Origin: Bdellovibrionales bacterium
GTDB lineage: Bacteria; Bdellovibrionota; Bdellovibrionia; Bdellovibrionales; UBA1609
Direction: 5' to 3'
NCBI GenBank assembly: GCA_965261545.1
Contig: CBDHDF010000011.1
Location: forward strand, 96,001 to 160,000
Length of the DNA stretch: 64,000 bases
A program made the position numbers and the translations under genes. Positions 33,680 to 57,460 of this stretch are shown here, in pieces. Every line of letters begins with the position of its first letter. Within the stretch, counting starts at the first letter, position 1. The notes beneath the pieces are model-generated. The model was not told where the DNA came from. It made no database searches and saw nothing but the letters and a program-made list of their open reading frames with translations.

Positions 33680-34033
33680 ATGAGTCAAAATAACATAATA
33701 AAACTAACCAAAGGAGGGGCAAGCCATGTGCGAATGTCTCCATCTGAGTATGACAGAATCAAAAAAGATAGTGAAACATCTGGGAAATCCATTCCTGACC
33801 TTTTGAGAGAATCTTATTTCAGTCAACCTCCAAGAAAAGTGCTTGTCGGCAGATCTGATTTAGCTATTTTGAGAAAAGATTTAAATAGAATTGGAAATAA
33901 TCTCAATCAAATTGCCAGAAGGCTCAATGTTGGTCTTATGCATGGATGGAGTGACAAACTGGATTCCGTCTTGGAACAATTTGAAACCCTAACGAATCAA
34001 ATTTACTACGGCTATGGCGTACATAAAAGTTAA
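33680..34033 (+). CDS. mobC: Mobilisation relaxosome protein
   Basis: HVRMS..EY RHH-like N-terminus; LNRIGNNLNQIAR signature. Confidence 0.92.
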   Translation: MSQNNIIKLTKGGASHVRMSPSEYDRIKKDSETSGKSIPDLLRESYFSQPPRKVLVGRSDLAILRKDLNRIGNNLNQIARRLNVGLMHGWSDKLDSVLEQFETLTNQIYYGYGVHKS

Positions 34034-35915
34034 ATGGAGGAAGGAGACTCCCAAGGGGAGAGAACTTTCAGCGAAAGACTATGAGAAATATTTACTTAAA
34101 GAAAGAGGAGCTGAGACTGTGACCCATTGCTATCACTGCCTTGAGGGAAGGTCTATTCAACAATTTGAACGTATTCAAGCCCTCTATGGGAAAAACAAAG
34201 CCCGCAGAGGTCAAAGTGTCAATGTGGCTTTTGAGGTGATTCACAGTTTCAGTCCTGAAGAAAGTAGGATTGTGCCTGCGGGGAAGGTCAATCTCATGGG
34301 GGTGACATTGGCAAAACGCTACTTCCCAGACCATGAGTTTGTTGTGGTCACTCATACGGATACCAACAAGACTCATAATCACATCTTGGTCAATCCAGTG
34401 AATGAAAAGACAGGGAAAAGAGATATAACCGACCAAAAAAAACATCTCTACAACCTTCGAACCATTGCTAATGACATTTCAAGAGAAAATGAGCTTTCTA
34501 TCATAAGGCCCACGGGAAAAGAGAAGGCTAGAAATATCCCACAAAAGGTTAAAGAGATTCAACGTAGGGGTGGCCAGTCTTATCGTTTGGACCTTTTCCA
34601 AAAAGCCGATTTTGCCAGAAGCTATGCGACAAGTTTTGATGAATATGTGAGCCTTTTAAACGAACTCTCTGTCAAGGTGGCCATCACTGAAAAGACCATT
34701 ACCTATCATTATGAAGGACATGAAAAGGGAATCAGAGGCAAGAAACTAGGTGCCAACTATGATAAATCGGGCTTGATGGAGAAGTTCAAATCCAATGATG
34801 AGTTGTTTCTAAAACAGCCTCAAGTAAGGAGCAAAATTAGAGATGGAATCAGCAATTTCAAAGATGGAAAAAGAGATTCTTTGGGAGCTTCAAGCCTATT
34901 ATCAATGTTTGGAGGAAATGCACAAAAACTCAATGAAAAAGATTACAAATCTTATACGAAAAGTGATCGTCGTGCTCATAGGACTCCTCTTCCTTCAAAC
35001 GATACTCTTAGTAATTCTATTATACCTATGAGTGAGATAAAAAGAGCCTCAAACAGTGACATTCTGGATTACTGCAAGAAACACAATATAGCCTGCATAG
35101 AAAACAAAAAGGGGGAAACGACTTTAAAGGGACGAGAACACGTTGTCATCCATGGAAATAGATGGACGAACACAAAGAACAAAACCACGGGTTCACTGAT
35201 TGAGCTTGTAAGCCTCCATGAAGACATAAGTTTTTTGGGAGCTATTGCAAAGATCACTGGCAACCAAAATCTTTCCCTTCTTGAACAGCACTTTGGGGAG
35301 GTCAAAAAACCCTACAAGTCCTTTCATATCCCCAAAATAAAAACAGAGTCGCCACACGTTGCAGAAGCCAAAATTAAGCAATTCTTTAGGCACCACAAAA
35401 TCAACGAGGGGCTGGCCGATGATCTTTTCAAACAAAAAAGAGTGCAGATCGATCAAAAAGGCGGCATCTGGTTCTATTCTGATGAGGATCAAAAAGAGGC
35501 TGTCCAGTACACACTGGCCTCGGATAACAGTTACAAGGCTCAATACCACGGGCGACAAAATACTCCATTGATGGAGCCCTCCGCCCATGGGAGTCGTGTC
35601 ACTGTTTATACGGATTTTCTTCACTTTCTGAAGGCTCATGGGAAAAAGGCATTGAGTGGAAAGTCAAAATCCTCTCTTGTCTTGAGAGGCTTGGATGAAC
35701 AAGCTTTTCACATTTTTCTAGCGACAAGGCCACAAATCAAAAGCCTTGAGTTTGTTGACCCTGAAAATAAGGGGCAACAAACCAGTAAGAAAAACCTTTC
35801 TGACAGGAAGGATTTTATGGATCGCCAGAAAAAGCAGCTTGAACCCTTTGATATCTCTGTCTCAACTATTTCCATGGAAAAGGCAATGGCAAGGGATCGT
35901 GGTTTAAGCATATAG
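34014..35915 (+). CDS. Relaxase/mobilisation nuclease (MOBP-like) with C-terminal extension
   Basis: IHSFSPEE and HTDTNKTHNHILVN HUH motif; overlaps mobC. Confidence 0.88.
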   Translation: MAYIKVKWRKETPKGRELSAKDYEKYLLKERGAETVTHCYHCLEGRSIQQFERIQALYGKNKARRGQSVNVAFEVIHSFSPEESRIVPAGKVNLMGVTLAKRYFPDHEFVVVTHTDTNKTHNHILVNPVNEKTGKRDITDQKKHLYNLRTIANDISRENELSIIRPTGKEKARNIPQKVKEIQRRGGQSYRLDLFQKADFARSYATSFDEYVSLLNELSVKVAITEKTITYHYEGHEKGIRGKKLGANYDKSGLMEKFKSNDELFLKQPQVRSKIRDGISNFKDGKRDSLGASSLLSMFGGNAQKLNEKDYKSYTKSDRRAHRTPLPSNDTLSNSIIPMSEIKRASNSDILDYCKKHNIACIENKKGETTLKGREHVVIHGNRWTNTKNKTTGSLIELVSLHEDISFLGAIAKITGNQNLSLLEQHFGEVKKPYKSFHIPKIKTESPHVAEAKIKQFFRHHKINEGLADDLFKQKRVQIDQKGGIWFYSDEDQKEAVQYTLASDNSYKAQYHGRQNTPLMEPSAHGSRVTVYTDFLHFLKAHGKKALSGKSKSSLVLRGLDEQAFHIFLATRPQIKSLEFVDPENKGQQTSKKNLSDRKDFMDRQKKQLEPFDISVSTISMEKAMARDRGLSI

Positions 35916-40170: not shown

Positions 40171-40572
40171 ATGGTTGATCCACAAACTATTTTTAACAAC
40201 CTGCCCCCAGAGTCTTCTCCCTTTTGGAATGAGCAATCTCGGAGTCTGGATTACCAACGAATTGCTAAAGACTTTTTTGATGTGGCAGATAGGAAAGAGA
40301 AGATAAGCCAAATCCTTGGTGTAAGTAAAAGCTCTGTACGGTATGACCGTAAGATGCCAAGGGAGGTAAAGGAGTTGTTGCAAGATACTGTAACCATTTT
40401 TCACTTGGTCTATACTCATTTTGGCGAGGATTTTGATAAAACAAAACTTTGGTTTGAACTACCTAACCCTATGATCGGAGAAAACATCACCCCACAACAG
40501 ATGATTTATATTGGGCGACAGCAAAAACTCCTTCAAATTGTTTTTGCAGCGACTCAAGGTGACCGACCCTAG
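40171..40572 (+). CDS. Xre/MbcA-like antitoxin
   Basis: HTH-like ISQILGVSKSSV; C-terminal LWFELPNPMIG..TP; coupled to the RES gene. Confidence 0.75.
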   Translation: MVDPQTIFNNLPPESSPFWNEQSRSLDYQRIAKDFFDVADRKEKISQILGVSKSSVRYDRKMPREVKELLQDTVTIFHLVYTHFGEDFDKTKLWFELPNPMIGENITPQQMIYIGRQQKLLQIVFAATQGDRP

Positions 40573-41462
40573 TGAGAAGAAAAACGCTACCAATAGGAAG
40601 TTCCGATCCAGAAGTTATGAACCTAGTTCAATCTTCCGATTCAACAAAACAGATTAAAGAAAAGATTGCATTTAAGTACAAGTTTTATTCCGAACTTGTT
40701 CAAAAGAGGTCTGTACTTCAGAAAGAAATCAAAGCATCTCTTGTGTCAAAAATACAAGTGTTTCCTTTTAATGACTGGTGGAGGTTAACTACAACGAAGT
40801 ACTCCATGGACCCTATAAATGCTAGTGGGAGTTACAAAAATCCAATTGGAGGACGCTTCAATGTTGGGCAGATTGATACGACGAATACTGATAAATTCGT
40901 TACATTTCCAGCCCTTTACTTGGCAAAAACAAAGCAAACAGCTATAAAAGAAGTATATCCTCCAATAAAAAAGAAATGCTCACTTTCATCAATGGAGTTG
41001 ATGTTATCTAGCAAAGAGGCAAATGCTTTCTTTAAGGTGAGAGGAGAGGTCCGTGTCTTGGATATTGATAGCCCCAACAATCTAACTGCTTTTGTAAAGG
41101 TCATTAAAAAAATAACGATTGACGCTGACACTGAAAAGGAGGCTCTTAGGCTATCAGAACCTAACCCTCAGACAGTACAAACAGTGAAGGAGCTTAAAAG
41201 GGCTCTATATTCTACTAATTGGAAAAACTTCATAAGTATTTATGATGACCCTCCTCCTTCGCAAATTTTTGGGCAAATTGTAAGGTCTTCTGGAATTGAG
41301 GGGTTATTATACTCATCAATTCATTCTCAAAATAAGCATGATTGTAAGTGCTTAGCTTTATTCTTAGAAAACTTTGAAGACTCGGCTTCTTTTGTAGAAG
41401 TGATTGATTCTGACATTAGCAAAAAAAGAATAGATCAGAACACGTTTAAAGAATTCTTCTAA
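40572..41462 (+). CDS. RES domain protein (putative toxin)
   Basis: GGRFN, ALYLA...TAIKE and SQIFG...IEGLLYSS motifs. Confidence 0.82.
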   Translation: MRRKTLPIGSSDPEVMNLVQSSDSTKQIKEKIAFKYKFYSELVQKRSVLQKEIKASLVSKIQVFPFNDWWRLTTTKYSMDPINASGSYKNPIGGRFNVGQIDTTNTDKFVTFPALYLAKTKQTAIKEVYPPIKKKCSLSSMELMLSSKEANAFFKVRGEVRVLDIDSPNNLTAFVKVIKKITIDADTEKEALRLSEPNPQTVQTVKELKRALYSTNWKNFISIYDDPPPSQIFGQIVRSSGIEGLLYSSIHSQNKHDCKCLALFLENFEDSASFVEVIDSDISKKRIDQNTFKEFF

Positions 41463-44012: not shown

Positions 44013-45166
44013 CTTATGAAAAAAATGGAAAACAGCTTTTCCGAGTCTATGTTCAGGGGCGAGGAAAGGTAGACACTTCTATAAGGGTCCAAAAGAATAA
44101 ATTTAATATAGAGACTCTTAAGGATGCGTGCAAAGAAGAGAAAAGGCTTATTAGAGCTGTTTCAGATGAGATCAATAAGATCGAAGGACGAGGGCTGAAA
44201 TGGAGGGATATCATTTATCGCTGGGAAACCTATGCTTTGCAAGGACTTCTCGGAGATAAACAAAAAGACCCCCATTACATCAAGGACCATGTAAACCGAC
44301 TGCTCCATTATACAAAGCTTTGGCTTGACTGCGTGGCTTCCGAACTCACTAAGGGGGATGGAAGACTTGTCTTGAGTCAGGCGAAAGAAAGTGGAGGCAA
44401 GGAAGGTTCACTAAAAAAAATCAAATCCTCTGTAAATGTAGTCTTCAAGTGGGCTATTGAGGAAAAGCTGGTCGTTGGTGTTCACTCAAGCCCTACTGAG
44501 GGAGTTAATGTTTCAGACAAGGCGGAGAAGGTTCCTAAGATTCTCACCTTAGAAGAGATTAAAACTCTTCTCAAAGGAGCTAAAGAAGAGCAGCATCCTT
44601 GGTATCATATTTGGTCTTTTGCATTTCTTACTGGAATGAGAAGTGGCGAATTGAAGGCATTGCAGTGGAAGGATATTGATTTTGACCGACAAACAATATT
44701 GGTCTCCAAGTCCTACAGCCATCGCAAGCGAGTGATAAAGTGCACCAAAGCTGGTCACTGGCGAAATGTACCCATTTCCAATGACCTTCTGAAGATCATC
44801 ACTGAACTTCAGAGAGATAGTCATTGTGACCCTGAAGGCTTTGTCCTTCCAAGACATGGGACATGGACCAATGGTGAAGCCGGAAAGGTTTTGAGGACAT
44901 TCCTAAAGAAATATAACATAAATCAGCATGTTGTATTTCATACACTCAGAGCCTGTTTTGCGACCCATATGTTGGCTCAAGGGGTCAATCAGGCCACCGT
45001 TATGAAAATTGGTGGATGGAGAGATATTAAGACTTTCCAAATCTACGTTCGGCTCGGTGGGATTGAGGTCAAAGGTGCAACAGAGGTTTTGCAAGTGATT
45101 CCAACCCTTGACTCTCTCGCTCCTAAAGACAATGTAATCGGCTTTCCTTGGCACAAGGGCATATGA
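44000..45166 (+). CDS. Tyrosine integrase, copy 2 (intact)
   Basis: R (TGMRSGE), K (CTKAG), HxxR (HTLR), W (GW) and Y catalytic residues. Confidence 0.94.
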   Translation: MAILTYEKNGKQLFRVYVQGRGKVDTSIRVQKNKFNIETLKDACKEEKRLIRAVSDEINKIEGRGLKWRDIIYRWETYALQGLLGDKQKDPHYIKDHVNRLLHYTKLWLDCVASELTKGDGRLVLSQAKESGGKEGSLKKIKSSVNVVFKWAIEEKLVVGVHSSPTEGVNVSDKAEKVPKILTLEEIKTLLKGAKEEQHPWYHIWSFAFLTGMRSGELKALQWKDIDFDRQTILVSKSYSHRKRVIKCTKAGHWRNVPISNDLLKIITELQRDSHCDPEGFVLPRHGTWTNGEAGKVLRTFLKKYNINQHVVFHTLRACFATHMLAQGVNQATVMKIGGWRDIKTFQIYVRLGGIEVKGATEVLQVIPTLDSLAPKDNVIGFPWHKGI

Positions 45167-45887
45167 AACAGTAAAATAATTCTTCAGTTGAGAGATGCCT
45201 TTGGCATTTCTCAACATTTCTTAATGTTTGCTAACCATTGCTAAGTAGGTTAACTTAAACTACTGAAATTAATGGAAACTTTGACTAATTTATTCGACGC
45301 AATGCGTTTCGGTGTCTCTTATGGGCACCAATAGGCCGTATGTATGTAAAATAAATGGATTAAGGAGATCATCCATCATTTTTCTAGACCCTTTTTGAAA
45401 AACCGTTTTGCCAAAGGTTTAACTTTATTTGTGTCCCCTAGGCCGACAGATAATACTTTGAGTAACTTCTGAAATAATTTATTCATCGTATCGTTAGGAA
45501 AGGTAGAGTTACTAATAGAAAACATACAAAGCCGCTAAGATGGCCCTGCGCATTATGAAATCTTTGCGAAATTGGATGCATCCTTTCTTCAATATGTGTT
45601 GTGTGGAATATTAGGATATAACAATTTTCTGGCTTGATATATGGAGAACCTATACAAACTGCTAAATGGCGCTGTGAGTTATGAAGTTTCTGAAATATTT
45701 ACATGAGCTTTCTCTTAATCTTTTGTCCGGAATTAGGTTAATGAACTGCGTATCTAAAAGAAACTTGGAATAGCAGCCCCACCATGTATTGATTAAAGTC
45801 ACCAAAAACTAACAAGTAATTGAGCAATCATAAAAAATCTAGCTGTAGATTAAATTCTACCTGAATTTGAATACTAAGGAAAAGAAT

Positions 45888-46115
45888 ATGGAAAATATCG
45901 ATATCACTTTAATTTCTAGAATATGTACAATCTTATCTTTTCCGATAGCTCTCTTATCTTTTCTGATAGCCCTCTTATCCCACTGTACTTCAAGAAAAAA
46001 TAAAAGAGATATTGTAAACATAAAAAGCTCTATAAAGAACATAGACAGCTCAGCAACTAATATCTCAGTTCGTGGAAATAAGAATACTACAGCAGGAAGA
46101 AATATTGATGAATAA
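45888..46115 (+). CDS. Small single-TM protein with C-terminal amyloid-like motif
   Basis: RBS-like AAGGA; hydrophobic ICTILSFPIALLSFLIALLS; C-terminal NISVRGNKNTTAGRNI; stop overlaps the next ATG. Confidence 0.7.
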   Translation: MENIDITLISRICTILSFPIALLSFLIALLSHCTSRKNKRDIVNIKSSIKNIDSSATNISVRGNKNTTAGRNIDE

Positions 46116-46668
46116 TAATACGATAAATATAAATGGCAACAATAATATTGTTGCCGGTGGAGATATAATAGTAAAGAACATCCAAAGATTACCTTCTCTA
46201 CTAGGTTCAATACTACCATCCTTAATTGAAGCCATAGATACTTTTGATGAGTCTAAACAGCCTCCATCTAAGCCATATGAAATTGATAACAAGATAAATT
46301 TTAATAATTTATACGTTTATAAAAATTCGATAGAAAAATATGGTCTATTTGGAAATATTATAGATTCAATAATGGAAAATTTAGATACGTCAAAGCCAAT
46401 GTCGAAGAAGAAAATTTTTAGATATCTTGAAAAAAAATATGTAGATACAATAGCTAATTTAAACCTGAATAACCAATCTAAAATTGAAATTATAAAAATC
46501 AAGTCCGACGATATATTCAAAAAAACCATGTCGCAAATTAACGATGACCTGAAGGGAGCTGATACCGGAGATGTATCAATGGAAGACCTGGAAATTTGTA
46601 TTTTAGTTATTACATGTTATGGATTCATAAATTGTAAAATAATGGAGAATGTACCTGATGATTATTGA
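46108..46668 (+). CDS. ABC-three-component/Lamassu LmuA-like protein (C-terminal domain only, N-terminal N/G-rich motif)
   Basis: KINFNNL and terminal YGFINCKIMENVP resemble ABC-3C CTDs; upstream of the middle component and ATPase. Confidence 0.75.
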   Translation: MNNNTININGNNNIVAGGDIIVKNIQRLPSLLGSILPSLIEAIDTFDESKQPPSKPYEIDNKINFNNLYVYKNSIEKYGLFGNIIDSIMENLDTSKPMSKKKIFRYLEKKYVDTIANLNLNNQSKIEIIKIKSDDIFKKTMSQINDDLKGADTGDVSMEDLEICILVITCYGFINCKIMENVPDDY

Positions 46669-46897
46669 TAGAGATGTTCATCCAGATAGAAATCTTTTCC
46701 ATATAGGGGCAAGAGTACTTCAATTAATTAAAGAACATCAATTTGGTGTTATACCAATGATGGATTTGTTTGAAAGAACTAAAAATGTATTAGAGTGCTC
46801 TATTTCATTTGATGATTTCATACTTTCTCTCGATTGGCTCTTTATATTAGGGACAATAGATTCTAATGAAACAGGGGATATTATACGATGTTTTTAA
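46649..46897 (+). CDS. ABC-3C middle component / LmuC-like
   Basis: ~80 aa, HPDRNLFHIGARVL...ILSLDWLFILG; overlaps both neighbours. Confidence 0.8.
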   Translation: MYLMIIDRDVHPDRNLFHIGARVLQLIKEHQFGVIPMMDLFERTKNVLECSISFDDFILSLDWLFILGTIDSNETGDIIRCF

Positions 46898-48570
46898 GCA
46901 GACTCATTGTTCAAAAAGGTGAAAGAATAATTCAAGATATTCCCTTCAAGAGAGGGTTAAACCTAATCATAGATGAAACTCCAACTGCTAATAAAAAATC
47001 TGGAAATAATGTTGGAAAAACTACTATGGTTAGAGTCATTGATTACTGTTTAGGTGGGAAATGTGAAAAAATATATAAAGATCGAGAAACTAACACAGAA
47101 AACAAAGAGGTTAAGAAATTTCTACAATCTTCTCAAGTTCGAATTAAGTTGTTTTTAGAAGAAGCAAAGGATGGTCAATTACACGAAATTATTCGTTCAT
47201 ATGGAGAAAAATCAATCATAAATGGAGAGGAAAAAACAGAAAATGAATTTAAACAAGATCTGAATCAAATATTATTTCGATTAGATGTAAGTAAACCTTC
47301 ATCAAGAGAATTACTTGGTAAATTTATTCGAACTGAGAATTACCAGTTAGATAATATCTATAAATTCTTATATCCTCAAACTAAAAGACCAAAAGATGTT
47401 TACGAATACATCTATCTGTACCTATTTGGATTTCAAAATCATAAGGCTACTATAAGAAAAAATGATCTTAATGAAAATATAAAAAAAATAATTGATCGTG
47501 TTAAAGCTCTATCTCCTTACAAAGAAGGTGCTTTGACTCAGATTATTCGGGCTCTTGACACAGATATTAATATATTTGAGAAAAAATTAAAAAATTTTGA
47601 GATATCAAACTCACATAAAGAAAATCTTGAATCTTTAAAAGAAATAAGGGGAGAAATTTCTCAGCTATCTGTAAATATAAGCAATATAGATATCCAAATT
47701 AAATTAAATAATCAAACACTTAAGAATCTTGAAAAGACAAGATCATCTATTGATCCAAAACTTCTTCACAATATATATGATCAAGCAAATGCTTATGTCG
47801 AAACTCTTCAGAAAAGCTTTGAGGAGGCTCTGGATTTTCATAATTCAATGATTAGAAATAAAATGAATTTTGTTAATAAACATTTGTCATCTTTGATTCA
47901 AAATCGAAACAAAATGAAAGAAAGAATGGATATATTTTTTGAAGAGGAAAGAAAATTTCTAAGGGAATTATCTAGCAAAGGTGCTTTGGATGATTTAATT
48001 AAATGCAACCAAGAACTCTCATCACTAAAAGAGAAGAGGGGAGAAAAAAATGGCATTTTAAAAGAAAAAAAAGAATTAGAAGAAGAGCTAAACCAATACA
48101 ATGAAGAACTAAAAAACATAAATAATAAAATGTTGGAGTTTAAAGGCCGATTAGACAAAGAACTTGAAGATTTTAATACCCTATATAGAAAAATAACAAA
48201 GGAACTATATGACGAAGAATATATTTTTTCTTGTGAAATTGATAGAAATAGTAGGTATGATTTCTCATTATCAACCATGCATGGAACTGTTGGATCAGGG
48301 AAGAAAAAAGGACAGATATTAGCCTTTGATTTAGCGTATTTAAACTTTTTAGAGAAAAAAGAAGCAAATATATGTAGATTTCAAATCAATGATCGCCTTG
48401 AAGAGGTTCATTTAAACCAATTAAAGAGAGCTTTTGAGATTGCAAATAATATTGATGGGCAATTCATTGTTCCGATTCTTAGAGATAGAATTGAAGCCTT
48501 GGGTAAAGACTATATTCAAGAAAATAAGATCATTACTCTTTCACAAGAACAAAAGTTTTTTAAATTATAA
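46888..48570 (+). CDS. SMC-like ABC ATPase (DUF2326 / LmuB-like)
   Basis: Walker A SGNNVGKTT, long coiled coil, signature GSGKKKG, AFDLAY, Walker B FQINDRLE. Confidence 0.85.
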   Translation: MFLSRLIVQKGERIIQDIPFKRGLNLIIDETPTANKKSGNNVGKTTMVRVIDYCLGGKCEKIYKDRETNTENKEVKKFLQSSQVRIKLFLEEAKDGQLHEIIRSYGEKSIINGEEKTENEFKQDLNQILFRLDVSKPSSRELLGKFIRTENYQLDNIYKFLYPQTKRPKDVYEYIYLYLFGFQNHKATIRKNDLNENIKKIIDRVKALSPYKEGALTQIIRALDTDINIFEKKLKNFEISNSHKENLESLKEIRGEISQLSVNISNIDIQIKLNNQTLKNLEKTRSSIDPKLLHNIYDQANAYVETLQKSFEEALDFHNSMIRNKMNFVNKHLSSLIQNRNKMKERMDIFFEEERKFLRELSSKGALDDLIKCNQELSSLKEKRGEKNGILKEKKELEEELNQYNEELKNINNKMLEFKGRLDKELEDFNTLYRKITKELYDEEYIFSCEIDRNSRYDFSLSTMHGTVGSGKKKGQILAFDLAYLNFLEKKEANICRFQINDRLEEVHLNQLKRAFEIANNIDGQFIVPILRDRIEALGKDYIQENKIITLSQEQKFFKL

Positions 48571-48613
48571 CTTGATAAGGATGTGTGAAAGAATAACTTG
48601 AACGATTAAATCA

Positions 48614-50430
48614 GGGACTGTAAAAATAATTGTGTAACTGCAATTTTTTTCTTAAATCTTAAAGCCACTTATGTGGCTCCACTCCTGGTAAAAAGCACAG
48701 CCCCATATTATTCGTCAATGTATAATTGACATTTTTTCCTTCAAGCGATTTTGTCAGTCACAATGCATTATAATTTAATGGGGAGATGGAGCCGTAATGG
48801 GATCATATCAGAACTGGAAAGAACTCAAATAAATAATTATCATCTTGGTTGGAAAAAAATCAGCAATAGCTCTCTCAAAAAAATGGAAATTCCAATCTCA
48901 TCAAAGGGTTCATGTGTTTAGGTTCCCATACTATATTACCCCCTTTTTTTTATTTTTTTTAACTTGTGATATTCGAGAAATACCAGCATTGGGATGAAAT
49001 ATGAAAAAAAATGGAAACCCAAGTCTGCACCAAGAGGGCATGTATTTAGGTTCCCATACTATATTACCCTAACCATAGTCTCGTATTCCAGCATTTCTCA
49101 ACGCCTTAGAGGGCTTTTAAGCCCTCTTATAAGGGGACCTTATTTATTAAAAAACTTAGTTGTCAAAACGGTCACCGTATTCAATGGCAAACCTGTTCAT
49201 GGCTGGCTTCCAGTTGTGTAATGGTCGTGTCCATCGCTTAGAGGCCATTTTTATCGCTAAATATACAACTTTTAAAGCCGACCGATCACTGGGAAATATC
49301 TTACGATTTCTGATCGCCTTGCGGATCACGCTATTTAACGACTCTATGGCGTTTGTGGTATAAAAAATCTTTCTGATTTCATCCGGATAATCGAAAATAG
49401 TGATGAGATTGTCCCAATTCCTACGCCAAGACTTTTCAATATTCGGATACTTTGAAGACCACTTGGTACAAAATTCCTCAAGGGCCTTTTCAGCTTCTGT
49501 CAGAGTCGTAGAGCCATAAATGGACTTGAGGTCTTGGGCGACAGCTTTCATATCCTTGGAAGGAACATAGCGAAGGGAATTGCGGACCATATGGACAATG
49601 CACAGTTGCCTTTAGACTTGGGAAAAGCCGCTGAAATGGCTTGAGGAAAACCTGTAAGACCATCTACAGAAAATATAAATACGTCTTTCAACCCTCGATT
49701 TTGCAGCTCAGTCAAAACACTCAACCAAAACTTTGAACCCTCATTTTCAGAAATCCATAGGCCCAACAAGTCTTTCTGACCCTCCTCTGTAATACCAAGA
49801 GCTAGGTAAATCGCCTTATTAATAACTCTCTTGTCTTGATGGACCTTCACCACGATACAGTCCAAAAATACGATAGGGTAAGTGCTATCCAAGGGGCGGT
49901 TCTGCCAAGCCGTAACTTCATCAATAACAGCATCCGTCACGTTGGCTATCACTGAGTGGGATATCTCTGCACCATGGTAGAGGTCTTTGATAGCTCCTTG
50001 AATATCCCTGGTCGTCATTCCCCTCGCATAGAGGGTCAGAATACTGTCTTCAAAGCCCTCAAGACGAGTCTTGCCTTTGGGAATGACTTGGGGCTCAAAG
50101 GAGGCACTTCGGTCACGGGGGACCTGAAGCTCCACCTCGCCTTTCTCTCCCTTTATGGTCTTTCTACTGTAACCATTGCGAGTGTTGGATTTGCGGGTCT
50201 CAGACTTCTCATGCCTCTCATAACCTAGGTGATCGTCCATTTCCGCATTAAGAGCTGTCTCTAAAACAACCTTCATCAGTTGACCCGTTATGTCGGATAA
50301 ATCTTTTTGGGTCTTGACGTTCTTCGCTAGTTCCTTGCCTATTGTCTTGATATCCATTTTGCCTTCTCCTTTCAGGATGATAGTTCATCCTAATATGATT
50401 CGGCAGTTACACAAAATAGTTTACAGGCTC
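48614..50430 (-). mobile_element. IS256-family element
   Basis: Imperfect 28-bp IRs (GGGACTGTAAAAATAATTGTGTAACTGC / GAGCCTGTAAACTATTTTGTGTAACTGC); no TSD. Confidence 0.85.
49156..50357 (-). pseudogene. IS256 transposase with 1-bp frameshift
   Basis: VPRDR, FLDCIVVK, DGLTG and TTNAIESLN motifs; KVQLCIVH is broken by a missing base near 49609. Confidence 0.88.
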
Positions 50431-52150: not shown

Positions 52151-52572
52151 GAACATCTATGAAACAGTAAAATAATTCTTCAGTTGAGAGGTGCCTTTGG
52201 CATTTCTCAACATTTCTTAAATTTGCTAATCATTGCTAAATAGGTTTGTATAACCTATTGAAATTATTGGATATTCGGAGATTTTTATTCTCCGCTCCAA
52301 TAACAATGGGCAGGAACTTGAACCTCACCCATACTATCCTGTTCTCTACGAAAATCCATAAAGCTCTCCTCCATTTTTTCAGTCAGAATAATCACCGGGC
52401 AATACTTAAGTACAAAAACTAAATACGGAGAGAGGGGTGGCTTTCGCCACGCTCCGCGGGCTCAGCCTTTCCCTCTCCTTCCTTCTTGCCTTGTGCCCAG
52501 CCTGACGGCTGGCATGCTGAGGCTCGCTTCGCTTCGCCTGGAAAAGGGTAAAAGTGTAAAAGGGCAAAGGGG

Positions 52573-57312: not shown

Positions 57313-57460
57313 GAACATCTATGAAACAGTAAAATAATTCTTCAGTTGAGAGGTGCCTTTGGCATTTCTCAACATTTCTTAAATTTGCTAATCATTGCTA
57401 AATAGGTTTGTATAACCTATTGAAATTATTGGATATTCGGAGATTTTTATTCTCCACCTC

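Follow-up and report, generated by a model that had tools for sequence, protein, structure and literature searches.

A candidate four-gene Lamassu subtype in which matching amyloid-motif-like tags may couple an enzyme-less LmuA to a small membrane protein

In a 64,000-nucleotide stretch of a Bdellovibrionales genome (assembly GCA_965261545.1, contig CBDHDF010000011.1, positions 96,001 to 160,000; hereafter the window), four genes at 45888-48570 appear to form a Lamassu/ABC-3C defense operon in which LmuA bears no enzyme and is preceded by a gene for a small membrane protein. Short N/G-rich motifs, here called tags, lie at the C terminus of the membrane protein and at the N terminus of LmuA and resemble each other. 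We propose that the killing part has moved from LmuA to the separate small membrane protein and that the matching tags wire both. From the conservation and co-variation described below, the tag-matched membrane protein is very likely the dedicated partner of LmuA. By analogy with known amyloid signaling pairs, it is on balance probable that LmuA, once released and oligomeric, imposes an amyloid-like fold on the membrane protein by templating and that the infected cell is killed in this way.

Results

A tagged membrane gene accompanies short lmuA genes

Related loci (designated L with a number) were gathered by pattern scans for the LmuA C terminus and by profile searches, and flanks were taken for 80 of 119 stretches; counts from the metagenome pattern scans refer to the matches listed and are to be read as "at least". 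LmuA relatives were present in 140 of the first 144 loci and comprised 25 complete short forms, 59 long forms, and 56 fragments that were set aside. The 25 short loci include the window, and three of them carry the same protein on different contigs. An upstream hydrophobic open reading frame (ORF) of 55-135 residues with a tail rich in N, G, Q, S, and T was found in 23 of the 25 (22 of 24 besides the window), with its end no more than about 20 bases from the probable start codon of LmuA. The two loci without this partner were L038, which has a frameshifted SMEK-type gene, and L046; four additional contigs fit the pattern of a membrane gene followed by a short lmuA. At long, enzyme-bearing LmuA loci a small hydrophobic ORF lay upstream in only 3 of 60, and none of these three had an N/G tail. 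No other conserved neighbor gene was seen in the loci read. Judged from these loci, the membrane gene is a conserved fourth component of the short-LmuA system.

The window's membrane protein has one hydrophobic segment (approximately residues 12-30) followed by a net charge of +3. Its AlphaFold2 (AF2) model gave a helix with a predicted local distance difference test score (pLDDT) of 78-89 over residues 1-30 and a tail (residues 46-75) below 50. Hydrophobic segments were scored in 18 of the membrane proteins, and the net charge behind the last one was positive in 17; by the positive-inside rule, the tail would thus lie in the cytoplasm, the compartment of LmuA. At least three partner architectures were distinguished, namely one helix in 55-85 residues, a two-helix hairpin of about 80 residues, and two helices in about 100 residues, as would be expected of a swappable effector on one tag scheme. 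Pfam, PADLOC, and NCBIfam returned no family for the window's protein (best match Hol_Tox, E=0.1), and Pfam and NCBIfam scans of 20 and 12 membrane proteins gave none above the cut-off and no HeLo-type match. The Atlas placed the protein in unnamed clusters only, with a recognition score under the reliable range. A search with one membrane-protein subfamily, which is a narrow test, returned five viral loci, all known via their LmuA, and no other sensor beside such an effector.

Several individual loci deserve mention. The window's helix exceeds those of its relatives by seven residues, apparently owing to a diverged 21-nt tandem duplication (45945-45986). In L141 (1699-1947), a run of more than 20 asparagines separates the helix of the partner from its tag. 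In L007 (1494-2228), the membrane gene and tag are intact and lmuA is split into two frames just past the tag, through decay or an assembly error. L046 (520-1120, a minus-strand frame of the locus) encodes a 200-residue LmuA of SMEK-type background with neither tag nor partner, which may be a second enzyme-less kind or a remnant.

The tags of each locus match each other

In the window, the two tags align without gaps with 7 of 16 residues identical, as the first-pass annotation had it, and share 26 of 48 bases; the same codon is used at one of the seven identical residues. The BLOSUM62 local score of 38 was matched by 14 of 1000 tail shuffles (p=0.014). Of 1002 tail/head pairs from adjacent ORFs in this genome, three reached 38, the window's pair being one of them, and no pair scored higher (mean 15.1, standard deviation 4.3). 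Taken by itself, the match of the window pair is thus modest, and it is the conservation and co-variation in relatives that place it above chance.

For co-variation, the last 28 residues of the membrane protein were compared with LmuA residues 2-31 in the 19 loci that remained after dereplication at 50% LmuA identity; 18 were processed by script, L057 was added by hand, and the start of L009 was corrected by hand. The own-pair mean was 51.7, against 23.4 (standard deviation 8.8) for foreign pairs, and the best mean in 100,000 permutations was 38.8. The own partner ranked first in 14 of 19 loci and within the top three in 16; in the 18-locus version before correction it was first in 12, with a mean of 49.6. 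When partners were swapped between nearest neighbors as defined by the C-terminal domain (CTD), all nine disjoint pairs favored the own partner, by margins of +2 to +88 (one-sided sign test, 0.5^9, about 0.002). In each of the 19 loci, the tail fitted the LmuA head better than any internal LmuA window. An upstream transmembrane ORF with a co-varying motif, anticipated in the first-pass annotation, is therefore a conserved feature of these loci (23 of 25 loci; own partner first in 14 of 19; swaps 9 of 9).

At 81 of the 196 identical residues both genes used one and the same codon, whereas their own codon usage would predict about 96 such cases (a rough null), which indicates that selection on the protein, and not copying of DNA, maintains the match. 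Together with the single shared codon in the window, this upholds the earlier view that the similarity is not a recent DNA duplication. Across the 19 loci, each of the three possible frame offsets between the membrane gene and lmuA is represented, so that a conserved frameshift fusion is excluded.

Several distinct motif types were recognized, each present on both genes of its locus; this was clear in L008, L014, L016, and L141. The aligned motifs span 10-26 residues and contain 19% N, 15% G, 10% I, 6% V, 6% Q, 4% K, 2% L, and less than 1% P. The resemblance to amyloid motifs claimed at the outset is thereby borne out in position (sensor N terminus, effector C terminus), in length, and in composition, which is N/G-rich and poor in K, P, and L. 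LmuA residues 1-20 had pLDDT values of 65 and 52 in the monomer model. One tail gave a non-significant match to Ses_B (E=0.47). A complex prediction with three LmuA heads and three tails scored 0.02, and its controls were unfolded, so that it is not evidence either way.

The operon encodes a short Lamassu system without an effector enzyme

The four ORFs were all confirmed on the + strand, each overlapping the next (by 8, 11, and 10 nt), in agreement with the four overlapping genes first described (Table 1). The start of LmuC at 46658 was chosen from ribosome-site spacing and relatives; the longest start of the ORF finder is 46649. In public run X1, a single contig covers 45700-48642 with zero differences and zero gaps; as the four public runs come from a single sample, which may be that of the window itself, this contig argues only against an assembly error at the junctions. 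No promoter signal exceeded that of shuffled sequence.

Table 1 Features of the operon and of the module that carries it (window positions)
Feature	Coordinates	Strand	Basis or remark
Excisionase-like helix-turn-helix gene, tyrosine integrase, and conserved stem-loop	43707-45224	+	Module carrying the operon as cargo
Small membrane protein, 75 residues; proposed effector and fourth component	45888-46115	+	Hydrophobic segment; counterparts in relatives
Effector-side tag: N/G-rich C-terminal motif of the membrane protein	46059-46106	+	Aligns to the LmuA N terminus
Enzyme-less LmuA, 186 residues: N-terminal tag plus ABC-3C CTD	46108-46668	+	CTD10, structure matches, relatives
Sensor-side tag: N/G-rich N-terminal motif of LmuA	46120-46167	+	Composition; low model confidence
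LmuC, ABC-3C middle component MC6, 79 residues	46658-46897	+	Pfam MC6, E=1.3e-17, over the cut-off
LmuB, SbcC/Rad50-like ABC ATPase, 560 residues, short type, no CxxC hook	46888-48570	+	Profiles

LmuB matched DUF2326 (E=2.4e-14), AAA_23 (E=2e-5), and the PADLOC LmuB profile (E=1.6e-16). Walker A lies at residues 38-45, with the first G replaced by S as in most relatives, and the Walker B aspartate is residue 502; it is followed by R, outside the Q/S/T/E consensus given in the main text of PMC12663957. The CxxC motif is absent. The best PADLOC match of LmuB was PDC-M68B (E=1.5e-41), a family (M68) that the main text of the PDC preprint leaves unmentioned. Among the four operon genes PADLOC matched the ATPase only, LmuC included among those unmatched.

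LmuA matched CTD10 with E=1.3e-4 and 23 bits, under the curated cut-off of 28.1 bits; the cut-off was passed by its relatives P0003 (63% identical to the window LmuA), P0005, P0021, P0063, and P0109. In the AF2 model (pLDDT 89), a head of 22 residues is loose and the remaining body is helical. When this model was compared with 48,161 solved chains by VIA-align, the top two were solved LmuA C-terminal domains, 9hqx_A (Z 6.3, root-mean-square deviation 4.4, 121 aligned) and 9nxx_A (Z 6.2, root-mean-square deviation 3.8, 116 aligned), followed by a third-best row at Z 4.4; these Z values are middling and were used only jointly with the profile matches. Foldseek ranked YydB first (E=6.8e-3, TMq 0.62), the Atlas clusters for LmuA were CTD9/CTD10, and a sequence search of solved structures with LmuA and LmuB returned nothing relevant. 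Taken together, the Pfam MC6 and DUF2326 matches, the PADLOC LmuB profile, the CTD10 relatives, and the LmuA CTD structures substantiate the original assignment: by profile and model, the last three genes are a short, type II Lamassu/ABC-3C system.

About 22 residues precede the LmuA CTD, and there is no fused N-terminal enzyme effector; longer relatives with the same CTD bear SMEK, HNH, or Mrr domains. Because LmuA carries no enzyme, the window's system falls outside every named Lamassu effector subtype and fits the effector-less group.

Short LmuA proteins form a widespread, intact family

An exhaustive LmuA search yielded 244 cluster representatives at E<=0.001. The best 150 of these 244 relatives had a median length of 195 residues; 144 were at most 230 residues long and six were longer. 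This uniformity supports the initial reading of the window LmuA as a protein without an enzymatic domain and not a truncated pseudogene. Of 141 short relatives, 109 had at least 25% N, Q, and G combined in LmuA residues 2-31; none of the 22 enzyme-bearing representatives did. On this length and composition, the short LmuA is a stable, intact family and not a product of truncation or pseudogenization.

In a quick LmuB tree (37 rows, some partial), 14 of the 15 tag-bearing systems, the window's included, fell on one branch with a Shimodaira-Hasegawa-like approximate likelihood ratio support (SH-aLRT) of 99, and tag types tracked its sub-branches. The LmuB of L039 grouped among HNH types; a single clade was not rejected by the approximately unbiased test (p-AU 0.205, three rows omitted). 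A second origin of the tag module in L039 thus looked possible and was not established at this p-AU. L039 (1770-2536) and L057 (387-1192) are both tag-coupled systems that may represent a second gain of the tag and membrane module.

Named hosts of the relatives include a Bdellovibrionales metagenome-assembled genome (MAG), an Oligoflexia MAG, Myxococcus, and Acinetobacter. A genome sharing the window's order was also among those sampled from the phylum of the Bdellovibrionales MAG, which makes this phylum the probable one for the host. The LmuA profile (E<=0.001) hit 4 of 301 sampled genomes, two of these being weak partial matches, and further samples gave matches in 2 of 400 genomes (one unscored) and 2 of 401; a miss here means not found in the genomes searched, not absence. 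A 13-row alignment search found four genome loci and no viral ones, and a word-based protein search with the window LmuA found only itself. Among plasmids, the window LmuA had no match, and four other LmuAs led to the same three Clostridium plasmid records; one distant DNA search across E. coli genomes gave no match. Longer fused LmuA forms were not found in the range of 367-2000 residues, a weak result, with 327-366 residues outside the search.

Discussion

Proposed mechanism

In Cap4 Lamassu, according to PMC12663957 and 10.1101/2025.06.23.660979, LmuA is a monomer that is freed when LmuBC with ATP engages DNA ends and then forms a tetramer through its CTD. We considered that the short system should work along similar lines. 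At rest, LmuB2-LmuC would keep LmuA monomeric; when LmuBC meets foreign DNA ends and hydrolyzes ATP, LmuA would be released and would oligomerize via its C-terminal domain, as in Cap4 Lamassu. The gathered N-terminal tags may then nucleate a parallel beta-arch, amyloid-like stack, which would template the matching cytoplasmic tails and cluster the membrane helices. By analogy with NWD2/HET-S and Agp/Bab, such clustering would breach or depolarize the inner membrane and abort the infection. Tetramerization of the CTD on release is the kind of clustering that nucleates amyloid signaling and supports this scheme. If the membrane protein is indeed the dedicated partner, coupling by amyloid-like templating is probable, and given such templating, membrane-based cell death is a highly likely output; both steps are argued from characterized pairs.

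In its wider form, the proposal is that an SMC-family DNA-end sensor signals by amyloid templating, with LmuA as a pure adaptor comparable to RIPK1 or to the N terminus of NWD2 and with one- or two-helix effectors of 55-105 residues. The tag would be a fast-diversifying, pair-specific code onto which unrelated membrane effectors are swapped. We lean, by a little, towards this wider form being correct.

Several observations weigh against templating by LmuA as we propose it. The window pair is a comparatively weak one (rank 2 of 19), the own partner did not come first in 5 of 19 loci (ranks 2, 2, 5, 6, and 9), and three of the nine neighbor swaps had small margins (+2, +3, and +7). The permutation test overstates the effect since the loci are kin, and the 28- and 30-residue windows were picked after the data had been seen. 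L046 is a short LmuA with neither tag nor partner. The membrane proteins matched no pore-forming or Bell/HeLo family, and a protein made of one helix and a tail might just as well act as an anchor or a brake. Oligomerization of a CTD10-type LmuA is argued from other subtypes. Monomer models contained no beta structure in either tag, which is expected for such motifs but lends the proposal no support.

Alternative explanations

The tags might instead pair as a finite beta-sheet or beta-helix complex, for example with one tail per LmuA in a tetramer, and the effector would still be activated. Co-variation by itself speaks for like-with-like recognition, not for fibril growth; the LmuA oligomers on record are tetramers, and weak matches to the Gp5_C beta-helix repeat were obtained for one tail (E=0.03) and one LmuA head (E=0.0014). 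A finite complex, however, needs complementarity only, whereas near-identical motifs are a requirement of in-register stacking, and the length of the tags, their N/G/Q/I/V bias, and their layout fit characterized amyloid signaling motifs. We therefore regard a finite complex as fairly unlikely.

It is also unlikely, in our estimate slightly more so, that the membrane protein is a tether or brake, which through the shared tag keeps LmuA or the entire complex at the membrane or caps LmuA assemblies, and that defense is due to LmuBC, to aggregates of LmuA, or to an effector encoded at another place. Such a role would suit a protein in which no toxin or pore family was detected, whose helix lies permanently exposed and lacks a sheath domain such as restrains Bab or HET-S, and whose gene is the first in the operon. 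Antitoxin genes are often first in their operons. Yet the membrane gene accompanies just those LmuAs that lack an enzyme effector and was not found next to LmuAs that bear one, the loci read offer no other conserved neighbor, and in known pairs the partner with the C-terminal motif is the executioner.

If both tags bound a third molecule, such as a site on LmuB or LmuC or a phage protein, the tail would be a mimic or competitor of the LmuA head. Co-variation alone fits binding to a shared partner as well as direct binding, the genes are co-inherited, and tag types follow the LmuB sub-branches. Against this, the tag type changes fully while the LmuB head-domain motifs stay conserved, and LmuAs that combine this CTD with an enzyme operate with no tag at all; a third molecule is accordingly quite improbable.

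Very improbable, and already largely refuted by locus conservation and co-variation, is an origin by chance or decay (similarity of AT-rich, N-rich sequence, a split or frameshifted gene, an LmuA pseudogene, or recent duplication): although the operon has 28.5% GC, the window pair alone reaches only p=0.014, and broken LmuAs exist (L038, of frameshifted SMEK type, and L007), the LmuA family is large and uniform in length, pairing is also seen in GC-rich loci such as L006 and L014, three frame offsets occur over 19 loci, the tail fits best at the N terminus in 19 of 19, and codons are unshared.

Relation to known systems

The main text of PMC12663957 describes a Clade O of short Lamassu, with more than 100 sequences from more than 40 species, in which the effector domain of LmuA seems to have been lost. 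The systems collected here resemble it in their short LmuB, their intact LmuC and LmuB, an LmuA that consists of the CTD only, and a wide distribution, and the enzyme-less clade is probably the published Clade O, matched by description and not by accessions. They differ in that the main text names neither an upstream membrane gene nor a motif; the words "amyloid" and "transmembrane" have no occurrences in the main text of PMC12663957 or in that of 10.1101/2025.06.23.660979.

The nearest sequence relatives are the type II CTD10/MC6 systems with SMEK, HNH, or Mrr effectors, with DdmABC as structural model (PMC12663957; 10.1101/2025.06.23.660979). The order lmuA-lmuC-lmuB, the CTD fold, the LmuC family, and the SbcC-like ATPase are shared with these systems; the difference lies in a tag of about 20 residues in place of the CTD-fused enzyme and in the fourth, upstream membrane gene.

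On the amyloid side, the closest parallel is Bab/Agp (BASS11, one of the bacterial amyloid signaling sequence classes), in which, according to 10.1101/2024.11.07.622273, sensor and effector share a motif of about 20 residues, the sensor templates amyloid on the membrane-targeting effector, and infection is aborted. Both have adjacent genes, a small membrane-targeting effector with a C-terminal motif, an N-terminal sensor motif of about 20 residues, and an anti-phage setting. The Bab/Agp sensor is TPR-GreA/B-PIN and its effector a Bell-like helical bundle, whereas here an SMC-like DNA-end sensor with an adaptor faces one or two bare membrane helices and, unlike in Bab/Agp, several motif types occur inside one system. 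BASS motifs, according to 10.1101/2020.01.06.895854, have about 25 residues, are rich in Q, N, G, V, and I and poor in K, P, and L, and lie at sensor N termini and effector C termini of adjacent genes. Layout, length, composition, and the use of several effectors per motif agree with BASS1-10 NLR/Bell and NWD2/HET-S pairs, as do the two pseudo-repeats recognized by eye in some effector tails (L002, L007). BASS1-10 differ in that their sensor is an NLR and not a Lamassu adaptor; the hosts here are mostly non-filamentous bacteria.

The first-pass annotation had considered the combination undescribed. This stood for the pairing of Lamassu with an amyloid tag, of which no description was found in the literature searched, most subscription journals excepted; it did not stand for the enzyme-less clade, which is probably Clade O. 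Lamassu and SMC are unmentioned in the available text of the Bab/Agp preprint (ABC likewise) and of the 2026 signaling-amyloid review PMC13506858. The sequence evidence thus points to a four-gene Lamassu subtype working like a BASS pair, a new combination of known halves outside the named BASS classes and Lamassu effector subtypes.

An answer to the puzzle of effector-less Lamassu is thereby suggested, namely that an overlooked small upstream gene is the tag-coupled effector. If true, this would join SMC-based sensing of foreign DNA with prion-like amyloid signaling, until now studied apart; it would place amyloid signaling downstream of a finite oligomer and in unicellular bacteria, extend it past NLR and TPR sensors, and include the smallest amyloid-gated membrane effectors known to us. 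The series of matched tag pairs would offer built-in specificity controls and possibly orthogonal signaling tags, and the annotation of defense systems would need a four-gene Lamassu subtype.

Genomic context

The operon has a GC content of 0.285, against 0.416 for the genome. It is the cargo of one of four near-identical excisionase and tyrosine integrase modules in tandem at 36545-57382 (starts at about 36.6, 43.8, 50.8, and 55.9 kb), spaced 5-7 kb apart downstream of a relaxase gene (34014-35915). Three intact integrases are 96-99.9% identical in DNA, and the first integrase is broken by an ISL3 element. The module cargoes are a RES-domain gene pair, the Lamassu operon, an FGE-sulfatase-domain gene, and a transposase. 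This arrangement suggests an array of cassettes that belong to a single family of integrative elements. Mobile islands are a usual home of defense genes.

The neighboring module carries at 40171-41462 a 133-residue gene and, coupled with it, a RES-domain gene (E=2e-13); the two look like a RES toxin-antitoxin pair. A multi-copy insertion sequence (48613-50430) has one end 43 nt past lmuB; a 30-mer from it has 26 exact copies in the genome, a Mutator-family transposase lies inside it in two frames, and 65-nt direct repeats occur at 48877 and 49005. Right after each intact integrase stands a 63-nt sequence that is 98-100% conserved (45162-45224, 52158-52220, and 57320-57382) and contains a 13-pair stem-loop (45187-45215), which may be a terminator or an attachment site.

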